A stretch of DNA of 64,000 bases from a virus (IMGVR_UViG_3300037851_000141:32001-96000); one strand, 5' to 3'. Positions 20,136 through 30,857 are shown, numbered from the stretch's first letter. Translations and numbers: made by a program. Notes: a model not told the origin generated them from the sequence alone.

Positions 20136-21350
20136 ATGTGGAAAAAACTAACTAACAAAGAAATCGATAAAAGACTCGAAGGTAGACCAATTTTAAGAAT
20201 AGATGATTATGATAATATGCCACCTAAAACAAAAAAAATTAGATTCCAATGTCTAAAAAATAAAGAACATATTTTTTGTTCTTTAATTGATGGAGTAATT
20301 AACAGGAAATGGGGATGTCCTCTATGTTTAGGTGTAAGAAAATGGACAAACGAATTAATTGATGAAGAAATATTAAAAAAAGGATATCAAATTAAGAGAA
20401 TATCCGATGTTGGAAAAAATGGACATGAAAAAATTAAATTCCAGTGTCTAAAAAATAAAGAACATATATTTGATAACACACCAATAAACGCATTATCCGG
20501 TCAATGTGCCGGTATTTGTAGAATTTGTTCTGAGCGCGAAAAATTTTCTAACATTATGATAAGAGAGAAGCTTGAACAAAACAATAACACAATTGAATTA
20601 TTAGATAATATAGATTATAATAAAATTAAAACATTTCGTTGTAAAAAATGTGATTATTCTTGGAGTGTAAAAAATTTTAAGATGATCATATATGGAAAAA
20701 CTGGATGCCCAAAATGCGCTAAACATATAAAGTTGACTAACGAGGAAATTGATGTTCGTTTATTGAATAGAAATTCTCCAACTAAAAGACTTGGTGATTA
20801 TATTAGTGGACATAATGAAATGTTATGGAAATGTGAAATTTGTCAACATGAGTGGCATCAAAAACCTGGAAAAATTTTATATTATGAACAAGATTGTCCG
20901 ATATGTTTTCGACAACAATCATCATATATAGAATTATATGTTGGTCAGTGTTTATATAAAAATTTCGAAATATTTAAACCTCATTTTAGAATAAAGAATA
21001 TTGAGATATTTGATGATAATCATATATTAATAAGACAATCAGTTGAAATTGATTTTAGAATAATATACAATAATATTATTTATTTCATAGAGTATAATGG
21101 AAGACAGCACTATGAACCTGTTCCATACAGATTTTTAACAAAGGAACAGGCTATTCGAAACTTAAAAGAACAACAAATAAGAGATAGTTGGGTTAAAAAT
21201 TATTGTAAAACAAATAATATAAAACTAATAGTAATTGATGGTCGGACATTTAATAATAAACCATCTGTTAGAACTATAATAGATTATATTTCTTATCAAA
21301 TAAAATCACCCAAATATTACTATTCGGGTGATTATTTTTTATATTGCTAA
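20136..21350 (+). CDS. Free-standing homing endonuclease-like protein (4 Zn-binding repeats plus PD-(D/E)xK/Vsr-like domain)
   Basis: Four KxTN...C..(C/H)...CPxC modules; C-terminal EIDFRIIYNNIIYFIEYNGRQHY...KNYCKTNNIKLIVID. Confidence 0.8.
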   Translation: MWKKLTNKEIDKRLEGRPILRIDDYDNMPPKTKKIRFQCLKNKEHIFCSLIDGVINRKWGCPLCLGVRKWTNELIDEEILKKGYQIKRISDVGKNGHEKIKFQCLKNKEHIFDNTPINALSGQCAGICRICSEREKFSNIMIREKLEQNNNTIELLDNIDYNKIKTFRCKKCDYSWSVKNFKMIIYGKTGCPKCAKHIKLTNEEIDVRLLNRNSPTKRLGDYISGHNEMLWKCEICQHEWHQKPGKILYYEQDCPICFRQQSSYIELYVGQCLYKNFEIFKPHFRIKNIEIFDDNHILIRQSVEIDFRIIYNNIIYFIEYNGRQHYEPVPYRFLTKEQAIRNLKEQQIRDSWVKNYCKTNNIKLIVIDGRTFNNKPSVRTIIDYISYQIKSPKYYYSGDYFLYC

Positions 21351-21356
21351 ATTATT

Positions 21357-23351
21357 TTATACTTTCTCAGTAACTTCACTAAACTCAACCCCTTGCGCGA
21401 CGGCAGTAAATGTAAGTTTAAGAAATTCTGAAACTCTTGTTGGCTTGACAAGGATTTCAGCGCGGAACTCATTGGCGTTGATTACTGCTGAAGTGTTGTT
21501 AGATTCGTCGCAAACTGTGAGGTAATCATACACACCACGTTTAGCTTTAACACTTGCTAAGAATGGATTTACGATACCACGGAAGCGAGACCGGCCGAAG
21601 TCATCATTAAGTTCAAACACGAAGTAGCGAGCCATCTTCTTAATGCTCTTTTCAAGGTATAAGAAGAGACGACGAACATTAATACGATCAAACGCACTTG
21701 CGGTAGATTGTAATGTCTTTTGACCCCAGATTACGATACCTTCACCGACAAAGTTTACAACAGGGTTGATTCTATTGTAGTAAAGAATATCACGTTGAGC
21801 CTTATTTGGGTTGACAGCTACATCGATAACATTGCTAATGATACCACGGTTTAGGCCAGCAGGAGCATACCATTGGGCATCATTGAAATCAGTATATGCC
21901 ATTACAGCAGCAGCAAATCCAGAGACAGGAACCCAACGTTCTTTTTCAGCAAAGCGATCAAAAATCTTGAAGTAGTTGCCGTAAATCGCAGAGTATGAAC
22001 TATTGATCTTAAGTGTATTGGCAACGTAGTTCTTCATAGTTGTATAAACGTTGGCAATAGCTTTATATGTGGTTGTATTCTGGATTTGATCTTGACGAAC
22101 GTTGAGGATAGCCATACAATCTTTACGTATTTCACGGCAGATTTGGTCAAGATAACGCTTAATTTCATCAACATAGTCTGGGTCAAGGAGTAAATCAACT
22201 TCCAGTTCTTCTGGGTTGGTGAAGTTCTCTTGCCAAGCAGTCATAATTTCGCCAGTAAGATCACCAAGACCAGTTCCAACTGTATCACCAGTCAACTTAT
22301 CATACCCACTAGCAACGTCATAATCAGTAAAGCCAAGGAATGTACGACGAGTTGTTAGTAATTGAGCAGTTGCGGCATTTGTTTCACTGTTTGATATGTA
22401 GAAATAGATATATTCAGACTTACCATTTACAAGAGTTGGACCAAACATGATATTGCCTTGTTCGTCCTTCTTGTCTTTATTTGTTGAGAATACATAAGTT
22501 TCAATTGGAGTGTTGAACTCATTGAATACGATTAGAACACCTTCATCGTCTTCATCTGGACCATACTCAAATCCAGTAATAGTTGAAAGCATATCATAAT
22601 CGATAGTCCAATCTTCACCAACAACAGTAGGAGGAACTAATAGATCATACTTAGCTAATGAGTTTGACAGATATTCAACTTCTGGAGTGGCTGATGTTGC
22701 TGGAGTACCATTATAGTATTTTTCAGCAATTGTATTTTGTTCAGTAGTTGTTAATGCTTCAGCAAGTTCATCACGAAGATTTACGGTCTGAACAAAGTCA
22801 TTATAATTGACTGTCATTACAGACACTTGTTGATAGAATGTTCCAGGACCAACCGCATAGAAGTGATATGATTCATTAGCAAGTAAATTATTTCCAACAT
22901 AATCTAATGAGTTGGGATCTGAAGCAGGAAGGTTGGGATCTTTAGAATAATCTATTTTAGCTTCATGTTCTTTTATGACTGAATAAGACAGAGGAAATTG
23001 ATCAGCTTTCTTACTGGTATTTTCTAATATTACAACGTTACCAGCAGATGAAGCAGATGTACCTACAGTTAATCCAGGAACAGCTTTAGTGCTATCTTCA
23101 ATACGGACAGCCCAAAGTTGATTAGATTGTTTTAAGAAGGCTTCAGCAGTAAACCAATGTGTATAGTTCGTATCATTTGGACGACCCATTTTTTGTTCAA
23201 GATCAGTAGGATTTGTCAATAAAACTTTCTTATTCAAAGCACCTTTAGTACTGTGAATAACTATAGCACCAACAGAACTTGTAACTGCTGGTATTGTTTG
23301 ACTTACATCGCGCTCTCTTATACTTACGTCTGGAGATAGATTTTGAGCCAT
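21357..23351 (-). CDS. gp18: Tail sheath protein
   Basis: SPDVSIRERDVS...WFTAEAFLKQSNQLWAVR...WYAPAGLNRG...INPVVNFVGEGIVIWGQKT...FDRINVRRLF; start at 23351 (AAGGAG RBS). Confidence 0.97.
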   Translation of the reverse strand: MAQNLSPDVSIRERDVSQTIPAVTSSVGAIVIHSTKGALNKKVLLTNPTDLEQKMGRPNDTNYTHWFTAEAFLKQSNQLWAVRIEDSTKAVPGLTVGTSASSAGNVVILENTSKKADQFPLSYSVIKEHEAKIDYSKDPNLPASDPNSLDYVGNNLLANESYHFYAVGPGTFYQQVSVMTVNYNDFVQTVNLRDELAEALTTTEQNTIAEKYYNGTPATSATPEVEYLSNSLAKYDLLVPPTVVGEDWTIDYDMLSTITGFEYGPDEDDEGVLIVFNEFNTPIETYVFSTNKDKKDEQGNIMFGPTLVNGKSEYIYFYISNSETNAATAQLLTTRRTFLGFTDYDVASGYDKLTGDTVGTGLGDLTGEIMTAWQENFTNPEELEVDLLLDPDYVDEIKRYLDQICREIRKDCMAILNVRQDQIQNTTTYKAIANVYTTMKNYVANTLKINSSYSAIYGNYFKIFDRFAEKERWVPVSGFAAAVMAYTDFNDAQWYAPAGLNRGIISNVIDVAVNPNKAQRDILYYNRINPVVNFVGEGIVIWGQKTLQSTASAFDRINVRRLFLYLEKSIKKMARYFVFELNDDFGRSRFRGIVNPFLASVKAKRGVYDYLTVCDESNNTSAVINANEFRAEILVKPTRVSEFLKLTFTAVAQGVEFSEVTEKV

Positions 23352-23390
23352 GCCGTACTCCTTTGTCGAGTCATAATAATCTTCAATCAT

Positions 23391-23398
23391 TATTTATA
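23391..23398 (-). promoter_or_regulatory. T4-type late promoter TATAAATA (gp18)
   Basis: Perfect match upstream of the sheath gene. Confidence 0.8.
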
Positions 23399-23436
23399 TC
23401 GGATAACGTAATAATTCGGGAACTAAATATAACGCT

Positions 23437-25656
23437 TTATTTCGGGTTTCTTAAATTTCTGGCCCGACGCATCTCTGAATTAAATAACCAGTTGTCGGGA
23501 TCATTTTCAGCCTCAACATCAGCTATCATTATTTCAAGAGCATCCTGTAATAATTGGTCCTCTTCGGTCATCATATCTTCAACCGTTACTTCCTCTGGTG
23601 CCATATCATGTTGTCGTACCCATTCCTCTAAATTACTCTTCTTCGTATCTTTATTCACAGCATCATACTTCTCGCCATCAAAGAACTGAGAATGTAAGAA
23701 ATAAGCAAACCAAATACAAGACATTACACAATCATCAGTTAAATTGCGACCAGCCTTAGCCTTAAATACATTCTCCCGTATCTCCTCAAAATAACCAATC
23801 TCATCAATAGTCTGCTTATCATATAATATAATCCGACCACCCTCCAAATCATCCTTAAACCATTGGGCTGCCTTGGGCTTAGTCGCCTTAGTAGCTAATA
23901 CACCATATTCCTTCCGGTCTATATCATAAAATAAGTTCTCGTAAGCATACTCGTCAAATAAACTCTTAACAACATCATCACCATAACCACCAGGATTAAC
24001 TTCAACTATTACATATGCCTTATTCCAATAATTAGCCGACTTGAAAATATAATCAGCCATCTTAGTCGGAGGTAAAGTATTACAACGCCATATAGCAACC
24101 TGTTCCGCAGCAATACCTTTATGAACATGTGTAATATCAAATACGTTCATAATAGTATAATCAGAACCAATACCACCACCAATATCACATGAAATAGCAT
24201 ACTTGTGTCCAGGTTCAGATTGCTTCCACATATTCGTAAACTCGTCTGGCGTCATAATTGGATCAACTTTTTTCAATTTCTCAATAATAAATGTCGGATC
24301 AATAAGTGTAATCGTTGAACCTTGGAATTGACAGTTGTGTGTTAATATGCCATTACAATAAAAGTTATGGGTTTCATTATTTACTTCAAGAACGTCATAT
24401 ACAAAGTCAGTATCAACTACATTAACTGATTTTACAACTTTGGAACCACTTGATGTTAATAAAATGGTCTGGTTTACAATAATATCTTTACATTTTATAA
24501 CTTCAGATTCATTTATAAAAAACTCATGATCTGGAGTACATTTTATTTTTTGATTATTTTCTAACTCTATTTCTAAACAAGTTTCTGGTAATAAAGACTT
24601 TTTGATTCCTAAAAGTGATACCCACCCATCTTTTGTTTTTATTTTAGCAGATTCCCAAAGTGGAGTTAATATATGTAATTCGGCTAATGTAATCTTTTTT
24701 ATCTGATTTTGATGATAAAGTTCAACAATAGAATCTCCAGTTAAACAGTTAAACTCCTGATTAAACCGCATATCACCAATCATCATTCGCATTTCACGTT
24801 CCCATTTTTCATCACGACCAGGAACTTCTCGCCAATTTACCATGAACGGCTTGAATGGGAAACTGGCATTACCATCATTCGCATCTTTCCAAAGTTGATA
24901 GAAAAGATTACCAGTACCATTTGGGGTCGATACAATAATACATCTGCCACCTTCTGCGAGTGTAGGCATGTTACTTGCGAAGAATGCGTCTGCTAACTGT
25001 ACAGGGACGAACGCGAATTCATCTAAAAACAAGCATGATACAGACTCGCCACGTAGCGCATCTTTAGAAGTAGCACGGGCAATTATTTTACATCCATTAT
25101 CAAATTCTATTGAGTGTGCGTTATATTCTTTTACTCCAGGTTTAAGCCATTCTGGTAATTTTTCATAAGCGAATTTTATTTCTTCAAGAATACTTTTAGC
25201 TGTAGACGCTTTGTTAGCAAGAATCGCAATAGTTTTATCTTTCTGGAAACAAGAATACCATAACAAATATATAGCAGAACAAGTTGTATTATGCGAAACA
25301 ATGTTATTAGCAAAATATTCATGTTCATCAGACTCAAGTTCAACATCATACATGTTTTCGCTTGGTATATCTAATTTCTCAAGTTTTGTACATTTATGGA
25401 ATCCAGTATCAGTTTCTATCATTTGACCTACTTGAACATCTTTTACATATATTTCGGTATGATTATCGGTATACACTATATGAGTATCAGCACATTTTAG
25501 ATTATCACCGTTCTCAAGTTCTAAATACCAAACATCATACGGCACAGTCTCCATTATCTTATTTATTGAGGTCCACCCTTGAGGAGTTTTTATCTCATAG
25601 TCAGATACGTCCAATACTGATGTGAATTTTTTATATGGTTGGAATTCTTGATTCAT
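23437..25656 (-). CDS. terL: Terminase large subunit, C-terminal fragment (IntC + extein + cis mini-intein + nuclease domain)
   Basis: After SHN: TTCSAIYLLW...Walker B LFLDEFAF, IIVSTPNG, nuclease ISCDIGGGIGSDY and DDCVMS. Confidence 0.95.
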   Translation of the reverse strand: MNQEFQPYKKFTSVLDVSDYEIKTPQGWTSINKIMETVPYDVWYLELENGDNLKCADTHIVYTDNHTEIYVKDVQVGQMIETDTGFHKCTKLEKLDIPSENMYDVELESDEHEYFANNIVSHNTTCSAIYLLWYSCFQKDKTIAILANKASTAKSILEEIKFAYEKLPEWLKPGVKEYNAHSIEFDNGCKIIARATSKDALRGESVSCLFLDEFAFVPVQLADAFFASNMPTLAEGGRCIIVSTPNGTGNLFYQLWKDANDGNASFPFKPFMVNWREVPGRDEKWEREMRMMIGDMRFNQEFNCLTGDSIVELYHQNQIKKITLAELHILTPLWESAKIKTKDGWVSLLGIKKSLLPETCLEIELENNQKIKCTPDHEFFINESEVIKCKDIIVNQTILLTSSGSKVVKSVNVVDTDFVYDVLEVNNETHNFYCNGILTHNCQFQGSTITLIDPTFIIEKLKKVDPIMTPDEFTNMWKQSEPGHKYAISCDIGGGIGSDYTIMNVFDITHVHKGIAAEQVAIWRCNTLPPTKMADYIFKSANYWNKAYVIVEVNPGGYGDDVVKSLFDEYAYENLFYDIDRKEYGVLATKATKPKAAQWFKDDLEGGRIILYDKQTIDEIGYFEEIRENVFKAKAGRNLTDDCVMSCIWFAYFLHSQFFDGEKYDAVNKDTKKSNLEEWVRQHDMAPEEVTVEDMMTEEDQLLQDALEIMIADVEAENDPDNWLFNSEMRRARNLRNPK
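24334..24747 (-). mobile_element. Contiguous mini-intein (138 aa) in TerL
   Basis: QEFN|CLTGDS...KCTPDHEF (block B TxxH)...VYDV...FYCNGILTHN|CQF; no endonuclease domain. Confidence 0.95.
25288..25656 (-). mobile_element. Split intein C-fragment (IntC, 123 aa)
   Basis: YEIKTPQGW...LKCADTHIV...MYDVEL...YFANNIVSHN|T(+1). Confidence 0.95.
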
Positions 25657-26803
25657 ATTTTTCCAGTATTTTTTTAATTAGATTATTCGTTATAATATCT
25701 TTATCCGATTTATATTCGTGTTCTTTAACGTGAATAAATTCGATATTTGGATTAAAATTTACTATATTTTGTTCTCTATTTTGGTTTCTCGTTTTGTTAA
25801 CATCCGCCCTAGATAAATGTTTACCGTGCCAATAATCTCCATCAAACTCTATACACAAATCAATACCTTTTATATAAAAATCCAATTTAGCATATGAGTC
25901 AACTGTTTCTATTTTATATTCATGATTTTTTCCAGACTCATCTTTTTGACCATTATTATTCTGAGCAAAATATGTTGAAGATTTTAATTCTATTGGAAGT
26001 TTATCAAAAATATTCCAAAATAACTCTTGCGATATTTTAGAAAAATTTCTTTTTTTATAATTGGTAATCCATTTATCTTGCCGTTGTTTCCAACGTAATC
26101 TACCATCAATTTCACCATATTTCTGAATACATTTTTCTAATGTAAATGTTTGTTGACGTTCTCTGACTTTTAATCTTGCTTGTTCTTCAGTTAATCCCTT
26201 GTTAGTCCAATATTTTAAGTGATTTGGCATTAGTTGGAGATTTGGGTCTTTTTTCTTTCTTTCTTTTAATGTAGACATTGCGGTTTCAATTCTATTTGTA
26301 TTTTTAGCATACCAACTTGTTGAACATGAAAAAGAACAAAAGTTAGCAATACCCTTTCCAAGACCTCTAAATCGTAATGGTTGTCCACATTCTAAACACT
26401 TCATACTAGGATTTTCGGGATTCATATATTTTATATAATAATCTAATAATGACATTTCGGGATGACATTTTTTAATATGTTTGGCAAGTGATGATTTATT
26501 AGGAACTCCAAAATTACAAATCTGACAAGAATATTCCATTTTCATATTGTTTTTGTGTGTTTCTCGTTCAATATGTTTCAGCGACTTAAATCCATGGTTA
26601 AATTGTTTGTGCCTTATCATTTTTTCTTCACTTGGAAACAATTCTCCACAAACATCACACGGAATGATCCACCCTAAATATTTTTGTTTATATTCGTTTA
26701 ACGTAATGTCTGGGTGTTCTTTTGTTATATGCCCATATATATTATATTTACTAATGGGCTTTCCACATAAAGGGCAGTTATTTATATCAGGGTGCCGCAT
26801 CAT
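25631..26803 (-). CDS. Free-standing homing endonuclease with C2H2 zinc fingers, between the split-intein halves
   Basis: CPLC..HITKEH, CDVC-x12-HKQFNH, CQIC-x12-HIKKCH, CLECG..CSFSC; C-terminal KLDFYIKGIDLCIEFDGDYWHG nuclease motif. Confidence 0.85.
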   Translation of the reverse strand: MMRHPDINNCPLCGKPISKYNIYGHITKEHPDITLNEYKQKYLGWIIPCDVCGELFPSEEKMIRHKQFNHGFKSLKHIERETHKNNMKMEYSCQICNFGVPNKSSLAKHIKKCHPEMSLLDYYIKYMNPENPSMKCLECGQPLRFRGLGKGIANFCSFSCSTSWYAKNTNRIETAMSTLKERKKKDPNLQLMPNHLKYWTNKGLTEEQARLKVRERQQTFTLEKCIQKYGEIDGRLRWKQRQDKWITNYKKRNFSKISQELFWNIFDKLPIELKSSTYFAQNNNGQKDESGKNHEYKIETVDSYAKLDFYIKGIDLCIEFDGDYWHGKHLSRADVNKTRNQNREQNIVNFNPNIEFIHVKEHEYKSDKDIITNNLIKKILEKYESRIPTI

Positions 26804-26822
26804 ATTATATTCTCCACATTTC

Positions 26823-26830
26823 TATTTATA
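26823..26830 (-). promoter_or_regulatory. T4-type late promoter inside the fractured terL locus
   Basis: Perfect TATAAATA in the 60-nt gap between the TerL-N stop and the endonuclease ATG. Confidence 0.8.
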
Positions 26831-26863
26831 TTGCGTAGACTGAATATTTTTTATGATTCTTGG

Positions 26864-27232
26864 TTATTCGGGAAACGTTTGAAGGTTTGATATTGCTTTA
26901 AACAACTCATATATACTAATTTCTTGAATTTTCCCTGTGTTTTTATTTCTTATAGTAATTAACATATCTTTGTGTAAACATTTTCCAATTTGTCGGGCGC
27001 TATTTATTAATGAGAACCTATGATTTTGGAATATATCGACCATATTTTTTTGATAAGGTCGGAGAACTATTTTTTGAGAACCTTGAGTGGGGTGGACGAC
27101 ATAGTAATAATTTTCAGCGAAGTAAATTACACTTTGTATACATTGCGCCCATTCAACTATCATTTCTTGTGTATAGTTGATTTTTTTATCTGGTCTTTTT
27201 ATTAATCCTTTATCATCATATTTAATAGGCAT
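26864..27232 (-). CDS. terL: Terminase large subunit, N-terminal fragment (84-aa extein + IntN)
   Basis: YFAENYYYVV...LRPYQKNM...SARQIGK (Walker A up to the Lys), then CLHKD. Confidence 0.95.
   Translation of the reverse strand: MPIKYDDKGLIKRPDKKINYTQEMIVEWAQCIQSVIYFAENYYYVVHPTQGSQKIVLRPYQKNMVDIFQNHRFSLINSARQIGKCLHKDMLITIRNKNTGKIQEISIYELFKAISNLQTFPE
26867..26980 (-). mobile_element. Split intein N-fragment (IntN, 38 aa)
   Basis: CLHKDMLITIRNKNTGKIQEISIYELFKAISNLQTFPE, then stop; intein block A. Confidence 0.93.
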
Positions 27233-27240
27233 AGAAGAGA

Positions 27241-27858
27241 TTATACCTTATTTTCTTCAGTTTTTATTACATCAGCAGTTGTTTCTTTTACTTCTTTTTT
27301 ATATGATCCTGGTGGTGTAATTCCTTTAGCAGCAAGCATGTCAAGAATATCTGAGTTTGTACCGATGAGTATATTTGTTGTACCACCAGCCATTCCAATA
27401 CCAGCATTCATACTTTGATTTTGTAAGACTAGCTTTTTTTGTTCAAACTGTTCTCTTGCGAGTTGTTGTTTAGAAATATTGATAAGTATTTTATTATAGC
27501 TATCCATTATTCCATTTATAGCTGAAACCATTGCTGCTGCTGTTTCTACTGCTCTCCCGCTTGGATTATCTTCGATTTCAGTTTGTATAGCCGCGAGCAT
27601 AACCATGGCACGTTCAGTGAGATTTTTTAGTATTGTTTTTGAGAATTCTGTATCTGGTAGGTCTTTTATTTTATTGAATTCCTCTTTCATTTTATTTACT
27701 TCTTGACGAGCGACATCTATTTTGGCTTGAAGTTCTTCGGTTTCTTCGGAGTTAAAGTCAAGATTATCTGAGTTACCATCAATATTTAAGATATCTTCGA
27801 TGGATTTGAACGATTTTGATTTTTTCTTTTTTTCTTTTGATTCGTCATTATTTTCCAT
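27241..27858 (-). CDS. terS: Terminase small subunit, gp16-like
   Basis: DTEFSKTILKNL...PSGRAVETAAAMVSAI...TTNILIGTNSDILDML parallels gp16; directly upstream of terL. Confidence 0.75.
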   Translation of the reverse strand: MENNDESKEKKKKSKSFKSIEDILNIDGNSDNLDFNSEETEELQAKIDVARQEVNKMKEEFNKIKDLPDTEFSKTILKNLTERAMVMLAAIQTEIEDNPSGRAVETAAAMVSAINGIMDSYNKILINISKQQLAREQFEQKKLVLQNQSMNAGIGMAGGTTNILIGTNSDILDMLAAKGITPPGSYKKEVKETTADVIKTEENKV

Positions 27859-29648: not shown

Positions 29649-29656
29649 TATTTATA
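29649..29656 (-). promoter_or_regulatory. T4-type late promoter TATAAATA
   Basis: Perfect match upstream of the 178-aa gene. Confidence 0.8.
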
Positions 29657-30849: not shown

Positions 30850-30857
30850 TATTTATA
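30850..30857 (-). promoter_or_regulatory. T4-type late promoter TATAAATA (gp14)
   Basis: Perfect match. Confidence 0.8.

Follow-up and report, generated by a model that had tools for sequence, protein, structure and literature searches.

A fractured terminase gene with an atypically split intein in the Walker A motif of a freshwater T4-like phage

In the fractured genes described by Dassa et al. (2009; PMC2677866), three co-oriented genes stand in a row: the N-terminal part of a host gene fused to the N-terminal half of an intein (IntN), a free-standing Vsr-like or GIY-YIG endonuclease, and the C-terminal half of the intein (IntC) fused to the remainder of the host gene. That collection includes a single 'Terminase' locus, from Lake Gatun, which was later studied as GOS-TerL. 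Here, an arrangement of this type is described in terL, the gene for the large terminase subunit (TerL), of a freshwater T4-like phage. The DNA analyzed is a stretch of 64,000 nucleotides (nt) (IMGVR_UViG_3300037851_000141:32001-96000), referred to throughout as the window, and is part of an IMG/VR virus record of 331,849 bp that is 92% complete according to CheckV. It is highly likely that the locus is a working fractured terL gene that was split by insertion of an endonuclease and that needs one trans-splicing and one cis-splicing event to yield TerL. Fractured genes that combine an atypically split intein with a Vsr-like endonuclease are already known, and the locus involves no new mechanism; it differs from described examples in its insertion site, in its pairing of Cys as the first intein residue (Cys1) with Thr as the first residue of the C-extein (Thr+1), and in the zinc fingers of its endonuclease.

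The natural atypically split inteins that have been characterized are, to our knowledge, few: AceL-TerL, GOS-TerL, VidaL, and PolB16. Such inteins are valued for protein labeling because the short half can be synthetic. AceL-TerL and GOS-TerL are the known examples from TerL, the former with an IntN of 25 amino acids (aa) and Cys1/Cys+1 and the latter with an IntN of 37 aa. Contiguous inteins at the Lys/Thr position of the P-loop are known in the TerL1 proteins of mycobacteriophages (Kelley et al. 2016; PMC5050341). A literature search found no description of a split intein at the Walker A motif of a T4-type terminase.

Anatomy of the fractured terL gene

TerL is encoded on the minus strand of the window by two open reading frames (ORFs), at 26864-27232 and 23437-25656, with a 390-aa gene between them. 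The order of genes on this strand is small terminase (27241-27858), P0001, P0002, P0003, and tail sheath. The features of the locus are as follows, with an arrow (↓) marking splice points here and below.

26981-27232, minus strand: terL part 1, the N-extein of 84 aa with the first half of Walker A (SARQIGK); matches PHROG 5989, terminase large subunit, at E 1.8e-20 and is colinear with intein-free TerL.
26867-26980, minus strand: IntN of 38 aa, CLHKDMLITIRNKNTGKIQEISIYELFKAISNLQTFPE, with its stop at 26864-26866; has an invariant Cys1 (63/63) and a conserved motif and docks in the complex model.
26804-26863, minus strand: spacer of 60 nt with TATAAATA (26823-26830, resembling T4 late promoters) and with a GGAG ribosome-binding site that precedes the endonuclease ATG by 8 nt; read from the sequence, the promoter being putative.
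25631-26803, minus strand: P0002, a free-standing homing-endonuclease gene of 390 aa with zinc fingers at residues 10-30, 49-70, and 93-114 and a Vsr-like domain at ~253-384; assigned from Pfam, PHROG, an AlphaFold (AF2) model, and VIA-align.
25288-25656, minus strand: IntC of 123 aa with intein blocks B, F, and G, ending SHN; has invariant H59, D104, and S121-H122-N123 and profile matches in the PDB.
24748-25287, minus strand: terL part 2, an extein of 180 aa from the Walker A Thr (+1) via Walker B (LFLDEF) to NQEFN; matches Pfam Terminase_6N at E 4e-16 and aligns to T4 gp17 from T167.
24334-24747, minus strand: second intein, a contiguous class-1 mini-intein of 138 aa (CLTGD...ILTHN, +1 Cys); matches Pfam Intein_splicing at E 2.8e-11, with CatC (6dsl_B) as best PDB match.
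23440-24333, minus strand: terL part 3, the C-terminal extein of 298 aa (CQFQGS..., nuclease domain), with its stop at 23437-23439; matches Pfam Terminase_6C and is colinear with intein-free TerL.

P0001 (122 aa) thus passes directly from an extein ending in SARQIGK to an IntN that runs from CLHKD to TFPE and a stop, whereas P0003 (739 aa) opens with the IntC, which ends in IVSHN and is followed by TTCSAIY and the rest of TerL. The start of the IntC overlaps the 3' end of P0002 by 26 nt. An earlier reading made from the sequence alone (the sequence-only reading) had proposed this division of TerL over two ORFs, the first with the junction SARQIGK↓CLHKD...FPE and a 38-aa IntN and the second with a 123-aa IntC and the junction SHN↓TTCSAIY, and both were found where it had placed them. 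It had also called for the removal of a second intein to leave a protein of 562 aa. A contiguous intein of 138 aa is indeed present at residues 304-441 of P0003 (NQEFN↓CLTGD...ILTHN↓CQFQGS), and with the junctions placed by script the predicted mature TerL comes to 562 aa (84 + 739 - 123 - 138), in agreement with the earlier arithmetic. P0003 matches Terminase_6N, Intein_splicing, and Terminase_6C, and both TerL halves as well as the intein are recognized by Pfam and PHROGs. A megablast search of the 3.8-kb region against cultured phages found nothing, and relatives were found at the protein level only.

The in silico spliced TerL aligned end to end with intein-free TerL proteins (530-543 aa), with no gap at either junction, and the 18-mer that spans junction 1, SARQIGKTTCSAIYLLW, recurs unchanged in a relative, P0042. 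In a profile of the IntC and the extein region that follows it, the extein part aligned to T4 gp17 exactly from T167, which is the Thr of the Walker A motif 161-SRQLGKT-167 and equals the +1 Thr of this locus. The N-extein ends in RQIGK, and the insertion lies between the Walker A Lys and Thr. Joining the exteins restores RQIGKTT, as had been anticipated from the sequence. The alignment of the +1 Thr with T167 of T4 gp17 therefore places the split intein at the "classic" P-loop position (GK↓T).

The three-gene plan is that of the fractured genes of Dassa et al. With their Terminase locus, this locus further shares a T4-type gp17 host, an unusual break that leaves only motif N1 on the short N-terminal piece, and the size of the C-terminal piece (122 aa there and 123 aa here). 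Unlike the loci of that study, it has a spacer of 60 nt before the endonuclease (27-51 nt reported) and no significant hairpin, and its endonuclease carries C2H2 zinc fingers.

The sequence-only reading had likened the pair to AceL-TerL and GOS-TerL. The likeness holds for the short IntN in a TerL host and fails for the +1 residue, which is Cys in those inteins, and most likely also for the insertion site. AceL-TerL and its consensus derivative Cat (PDB 6DSL; Thiel 2014; Stevens 2018) resemble the present intein in their TerL host, short IntN (25-37 aa there and 38 here), split after the first helix ("S2"), class-1 Cys1, and related Hedgehog/intein (HINT) sequence. By contrast, the +1 residue of AceL-TerL, GOS-TerL, and Cat is Cys, whereas here it is Thr at Walker A. 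Ser1/Cys+1 has been reported for GOS-TerL, against Cys1/Thr+1 at the Walker A GK↓T here, and with a Cys at +1 the GOS-TerL junction therefore cannot be the Walker A GK↓T. CatC (6dsl_B) matched the second-site intein of the relative P0020 (EFE↓SVSGD...SHN↓CEFLGS, Ser1/Cys+1) at E 2e-16, the cis intein of the window at E 9.8e-7, and the Walker A IntC of the window at E 1.7e-3. As judged from these match scores and the +1 residue, AceL-TerL and GOS-TerL most likely belong, as alleles, to the second site (QEF↓C), which is held here by the cis intein, and not to the Walker A site. The Walker A intein would appear to be a paralogous member of the same family at another TerL site.

A profile of the IntC family run against the PDB matched VidaL with 52 bits (E 6e-13), gp41-1 with 45 bits, and CatC with 40 bits. 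VidaL (PDB 6VGV), the closest solved sequence to the IntC family, is Cys-dependent, with Ser at +1 and a short IntN; it differs in being only ~30% identical and in splitting earlier, after strand β2, with an IntN of 16 aa. The P-loop inteins of mycobacteriophage TerL1-a proteins (PMC5050341) are inserted at the same point, between an invariant Lys and a nucleophilic Thr. Those inteins, however, are contiguous, reside in a Terminase_1-type TerL, and have conventional endonuclease domains, whereas the intein described here is split and its host is of the Terminase_6 (T4) type.

Recurrence of the split and the intervening endonuclease

A pattern scan of IMG/VR revealed at least 508 loci that encode a relative of this IntC, and the best 80 of these were analyzed in detail together with two other loci. 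The gene was found to be split in 66 of the loci analyzed and contiguous in 3, and 13 had no upstream sequence, such that 66 of the 69 informative loci are split. A P0002 homologue lies between the halves, on the same strand, in 39 of the 66 split loci. The other 27 have no P0002 homologue, and in about half of these the spacer from the IntN stop to the IntC start is 3-50 nt. The IntN of related split loci is 30-66 aa long (median 36); IntN sequences for comparison were taken from locus DNA, and a protein search with the 122-aa N fragment gave, within its word limits, just two relatives. A protein search with the IntC and ATPase returned more than 100 TerL C-terminal fragments of ~560-600 aa, in which a homologous IntC is followed by SHN↓T/S-T. 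The closest relatives, P0006 and P0009, have the order small terminase, N fragment, 360-380-aa gene, IntC-TerL, and sheath.

The family matches to both halves and the recurrence in 66 of 69 informative loci exclude chance as the origin of the split architecture. Nor is the split an assembly artifact, a concern that had been raised with the sequence-only reading: dozens of contigs that were assembled independently, from different samples, have the same arrangement. Its persistence in 27 loci without an endonuclease indicates that the split is old and maintained. This intein belongs to a very large metagenomic family that has so far gone undescribed and is no singular oddity.

P0002, which is single-copy in the genome record, matched Pfam zf-C2H2 (E 4.5e-6), with three C2H2-type fingers that start at residues 10, 49, and 93, and PHROG 3339, homing endonuclease (E 2.4e-8). 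Its AF2 model, built with 32 homologues, had a mean predicted local distance difference test (pLDDT) score of 88.5. In a Foldseek search with the whole P0002 model, zinc fingers dominated and no match was obtained at E <= 0.001; a sequence search of the PDB with P0002 gave only eukaryotic zinc-finger proteins. Exhaustive comparison of residues 253-384 by VIA-align revealed the nuclease fold, with matches to the DUF559-type endonuclease 3hrl (Z 10.3), the catalytic domain of I-Bth0305I (3r3p; Z 9.9, root-mean-square deviation 3.2, 98/98 residues aligned), and Vsr (1cw0; Z 9.6). Among the 32 homologues of P0002, REase_MTES_1575 was matched in 16, DUF559 in 7, and NUMOD3 in 1. E295, D308, E319, and H326 are conserved in 22-27 of the 32, with a spacing close to that of the EDxHD motif.

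I-Bth0305I and the EDxHD endonucleases (Taylor et al. 2011; PMC3239194) likewise have a Vsr-like fold, similarly spaced conserved Glu, Asp, and His residues, and an association with fractured genes. By contrast with I-Bth0305I, the N terminus of P0002 has no NUMOD/helix-turn-helix region, and three C2H2-type zinc fingers stand in its place as the DNA-binding part. On its modeled fold and conserved residues, P0002 is assigned to the Vsr-like endonuclease type of fractured genes, with a different DNA-binding module, and is predicted to be an active endonuclease. The Vsr-like fold and the same gene order in 39 loci bear out the likeness to fractured phage genes with an intervening endonuclease that had been drawn from the sequence.

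Several related sequences show other states of terL. A groundwater-metagenome contig of 1.5 kb (X2), with flanks ~88-90% identical to the window, joins position 25287 to position 27047 and skips 1759 nt; the joint, of which the shorter side is only 30 nt, fits an intein-free terL allele in a relative. In the close relative P0004 (204 aa, from a 7.6-kb Logan contig), the first 16 residues are identical and Walker A is intact (ARQTGKTV), and the protein ends, just before Walker B, in the IntN-like sequence RGES↓CALIF...IKIRNKETGEIREITLSELY. This IntN-like end near Walker B therefore points to related split inteins at different terL sites in sister phages. The relative P0012 (998 aa), which has the Walker A split intein, has a third insertion site occupied by another large intein (PTLS↓CLPKD...LGSN↓TGGSCIIVSTPNG), long enough for an endonuclease domain.

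Catalytic residues and predicted splicing

The first intein residue is Cys85 of P0001, immediately after GK, and Cys1 was found in 63 of 63 related IntN sequences. The junction RQ.GK↓C is invariant in 42 IntN, and a core of the form C...T.I.IRNKKTGEI.EI.I.EF is well conserved. All intein motifs except N1 are on the IntC. No substitution was seen at H59 (block B), D104 (block F), or S121-H122-N123 (block G) among 40 IntC sequences sharing 33-72% identity with the present one. In this locus a Thr occupies +1, and every homologue has either Thr or Ser there.

Complex prediction was performed with the IntC and 12 extein residues against the IntN and 12 extein residues, together with three controls. 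The interface score (ipSAE) of the IntN-IntC model was 0.78, compared with 0.01 for the best of the three controls; by rough counts, custom alignments having been used, the 0.78 mark is reached by 58 of 80 solved complexes and by 2 of 110 mismatched pairs. Runs agreed in at least 82% of contacts, and the pLDDT of the partner was at least 71. Cys1 and its flanks touch IntC residues 53-60, 100-105, 114-118, and 121-124, contacts that place both splice junctions beside blocks B, F, and G in the model. The model supports docking of the IntN on the IntC; similar split-intein complexes have already been solved (6DSL), however, and the score may reflect this likeness and not provide independent evidence or proof of binding.

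A single Terminase_6N match was found in the 331,849-bp record, which corresponds to one terL. An intact terL elsewhere, which the sequence-only reading had considered as a reason why this copy might be dispensable, is thus not seen in the 92%-complete record. We infer that the pair is active in splicing, as that reading had done; this view is now much better supported by the single terL, the invariant residues, the retained split, and the docking model. The fractured terminase gene is real and, on the conservation and modeling evidence, very probably functional.

Some points weigh against this interpretation. In the block B motif TxxH, all sequences have Ala in place of the Thr (ADTH), and the active site is thus not entirely canonical; His59 is invariant, and in this motif the His is more critical than the Thr. 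In P0002, the last Asp of the EDxHD motif is not confidently placed, D334 being not conserved while E361 and E/D363 are. The metagenome assembly is 92% complete, so a second terL could lie in the missing 8%.

Origin of the split and alternative explanations

Contiguous versions of the Walker A intein were identified in P0008, L047, L055, and L070. In P0008 (740 aa), FFNLISND runs via a 20-residue linker into LKKFDKVLYIPERYLISTPQGW, and this region aligns with the IntN tail and the IntC head of the window's phage. L070 is a close contiguous counterpart of the alleles that are split in L035 and L078. Two cultured members of the Ackermannviridae, Dickeya phage LIMEstone1 (L011:2060-4261) and Vibrio phage VP-1 (L010:1982-4198), have a contiguous mini-intein (SRQSGK↓C...SHN↓TTVVAAF) in a gene that their records label merely "terminase large subunit." Matches that start near query residue 5-20 suggest the same Walker A intein in Klebsiella phages Menlow and KpS110 and in Vibrio phages VAP7 and Kuja. 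In P0053, P0059, P0084, P0068, and P0032, TerL reads without a stop through ~300 additional codons placed precisely at the split position. The TerL gene of locus L094 (1501-4524) contains a nested ORF in the +1 frame (1838-2782) for a P0002 homologue of 314 aa (E 3e-12); the intein frame would there read through the same DNA as an open "linker," with the endonuclease encoded in the other frame.

The contiguous relatives would represent the ancestral state, and the relatives resemble steps in gene breaking as modeled by Dassa et al. (PMC2677866). The series would begin with a class-1 mini-intein at the Walker A GK↓T. An endonuclease gene with a Vsr-like domain and C2H2 zinc fingers would then have invaded the loop that follows the first helix of the intein. 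A stop and a new start would have created the split intein of a 38-aa IntN and a 123-aa IntC, and in some relatives the endonuclease would have been lost and the split kept. In the present phage, the two TerL halves would be translated separately, the C-terminal half probably from a transcript that starts at TATAAATA before the endonuclease gene. Docking of the IntN on the IntC would complete the HINT fold, upon which Cys1, Thr+1, and the terminal Asn would carry out protein trans-splicing to give RQIGK-TTCSAIY. The other mini-intein, which is contiguous and lies where the ATPase domain ends, would excise itself in cis, and the end product would be the 562-aa terminase.

TATAAATA is the T4 late-promoter octamer. 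It occurs 20 times in the window, compared with 14 ± 3.6 expected, and so is not enriched. In 17 of the 20 occurrences it is on the coding (minus) strand, and several copies are directly upstream of late structural genes; example sites from the octamer scan of the window, all on the minus strand, are 23391-23398, 26823-26830, 29649-29656, and 30850-30857. The strand bias and the placement before late genes are only suggestive of a late-promoter role. On this basis, the endonuclease and the terL half that lies downstream of it may be transcribed late from a promoter within the endonuclease cassette. Neither the region upstream of the endonuclease nor that upstream of the IntC start showed a significant hairpin (z -0.51 and +0.32, respectively), and a scan for sigma-70 promoters and terminators gave results not above those of shuffled sequences.

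It is conceivable, if rather unlikely, that the split is kept as a timing device, with the N-terminal half made together with terS, the C-terminal half made only from the late-promoter cassette, and the ATPase formed only after Cys-dependent trans-splicing within the P-loop. The more than 500 loci would in that case also be untapped Cys1/Thr+1 short-IntN inteins, likely orthogonal to AceL-TerL and Cat. Retention of the split in 27 of 66 loci without an endonuclease would fit such a role.

Three other explanations compete with that of a working, spliced terL. In the first, the intein halves serve only to keep the two parts of TerL in non-covalent association, and the parts are never joined by a peptide bond. 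A precedent exists in the fragmented NrdA of an Aeromonas phage, which is reported (PMC3045599) to be assembled via interaction domains from a mobile element, and the complex model shows docking and not chemistry. A break between the P-loop Lys and Thr would, however, leave ~160 intein residues in the ATP site, and binding alone would not need the invariance of Cys1, H59, D104, H122-N123, and the +1 Thr/Ser at 33-72% identity. Non-covalent assembly is therefore improbable.

A dead or artifactual locus, whether through a pseudogenized terL, mis-assembly, or a copy made dispensable by another terminase, is harder still to uphold. The contig is linear, metagenome-assembled, and 92% complete, and contigs of the likely source run matched as short fragments only. 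Set against this, all three ORFs are intact and free of frameshifts, terL is single, the junction sequences are perfectly preserved, and the three-gene arrangement recurs in dozens of independent contigs from different samples.

Removal or bypass of the endonuclease cassette at the RNA or translation level (a group I intron or ribosomal bypass), to leave a contiguous cis-splicing intein, has the least to recommend it: T4-like phages do carry endonuclease-bearing group I introns and in some relatives (L094) no stop interrupts the intein frame over the length of the endonuclease gene, but a scan of 23300-27400 against Rfam, with its group I intron families, gave no match at E up to 1, the IntN ends in a stop, the IntC has its own ATG and an N-terminal sequence conserved in homologues, and in about half of the 27 endonuclease-free loci the spacers of 3-50 nt leave nothing to splice out.

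For a terL gene that is fractured and spliced, the mechanism itself is unsurprising, and its use lies in possible tools and in the naturally occurring series that it offers for study of gene breaking. With its Cys1/Thr+1 pair and its different TerL site, the large natural family to which the locus belongs could supply new and possibly orthogonal split-intein tools. The family appears to keep all stages of gene breaking, from a contiguous mini-intein through an out-of-frame nested endonuclease and a free-standing endonuclease with a split to a split that has outlasted its endonuclease; because all of these are kept in related phages, the gene-breaking model is directly testable. For phage biology, the locus would be a case of an essential motor that has no ATP site until two predicted splicing events have taken place.

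Further observations concern VP-1 and the phage described here. The terL of VP-1 (L010:1982-5324) is also broken at the second site (QEYD↓C...), where a short IntN continues in frame into a GIY-YIG nuclease; the ORF after it opens with only ~61 aa of IntC before SHN↓CSFLG, with no block B evident. In the window, a 404-aa ORF on the opposite strand (20136-21350, plus strand) adjoins the sheath gene and contains many CxxC zinc-ribbon pairs. Its similarity to P0002 was not significant; its C-terminal EIDF...IEYNGRQH recalls PD-(D/E)xK/Vsr-like nucleases, and the ORF is a further candidate for a homing endonuclease of the free-standing type. At least two more Intein_splicing matches lie elsewhere in this phage genome, beyond the window, at G000:C1:128322-128771 and G000:C1:98972-100147, in open frames of 1063 and 999 aa, respectively.

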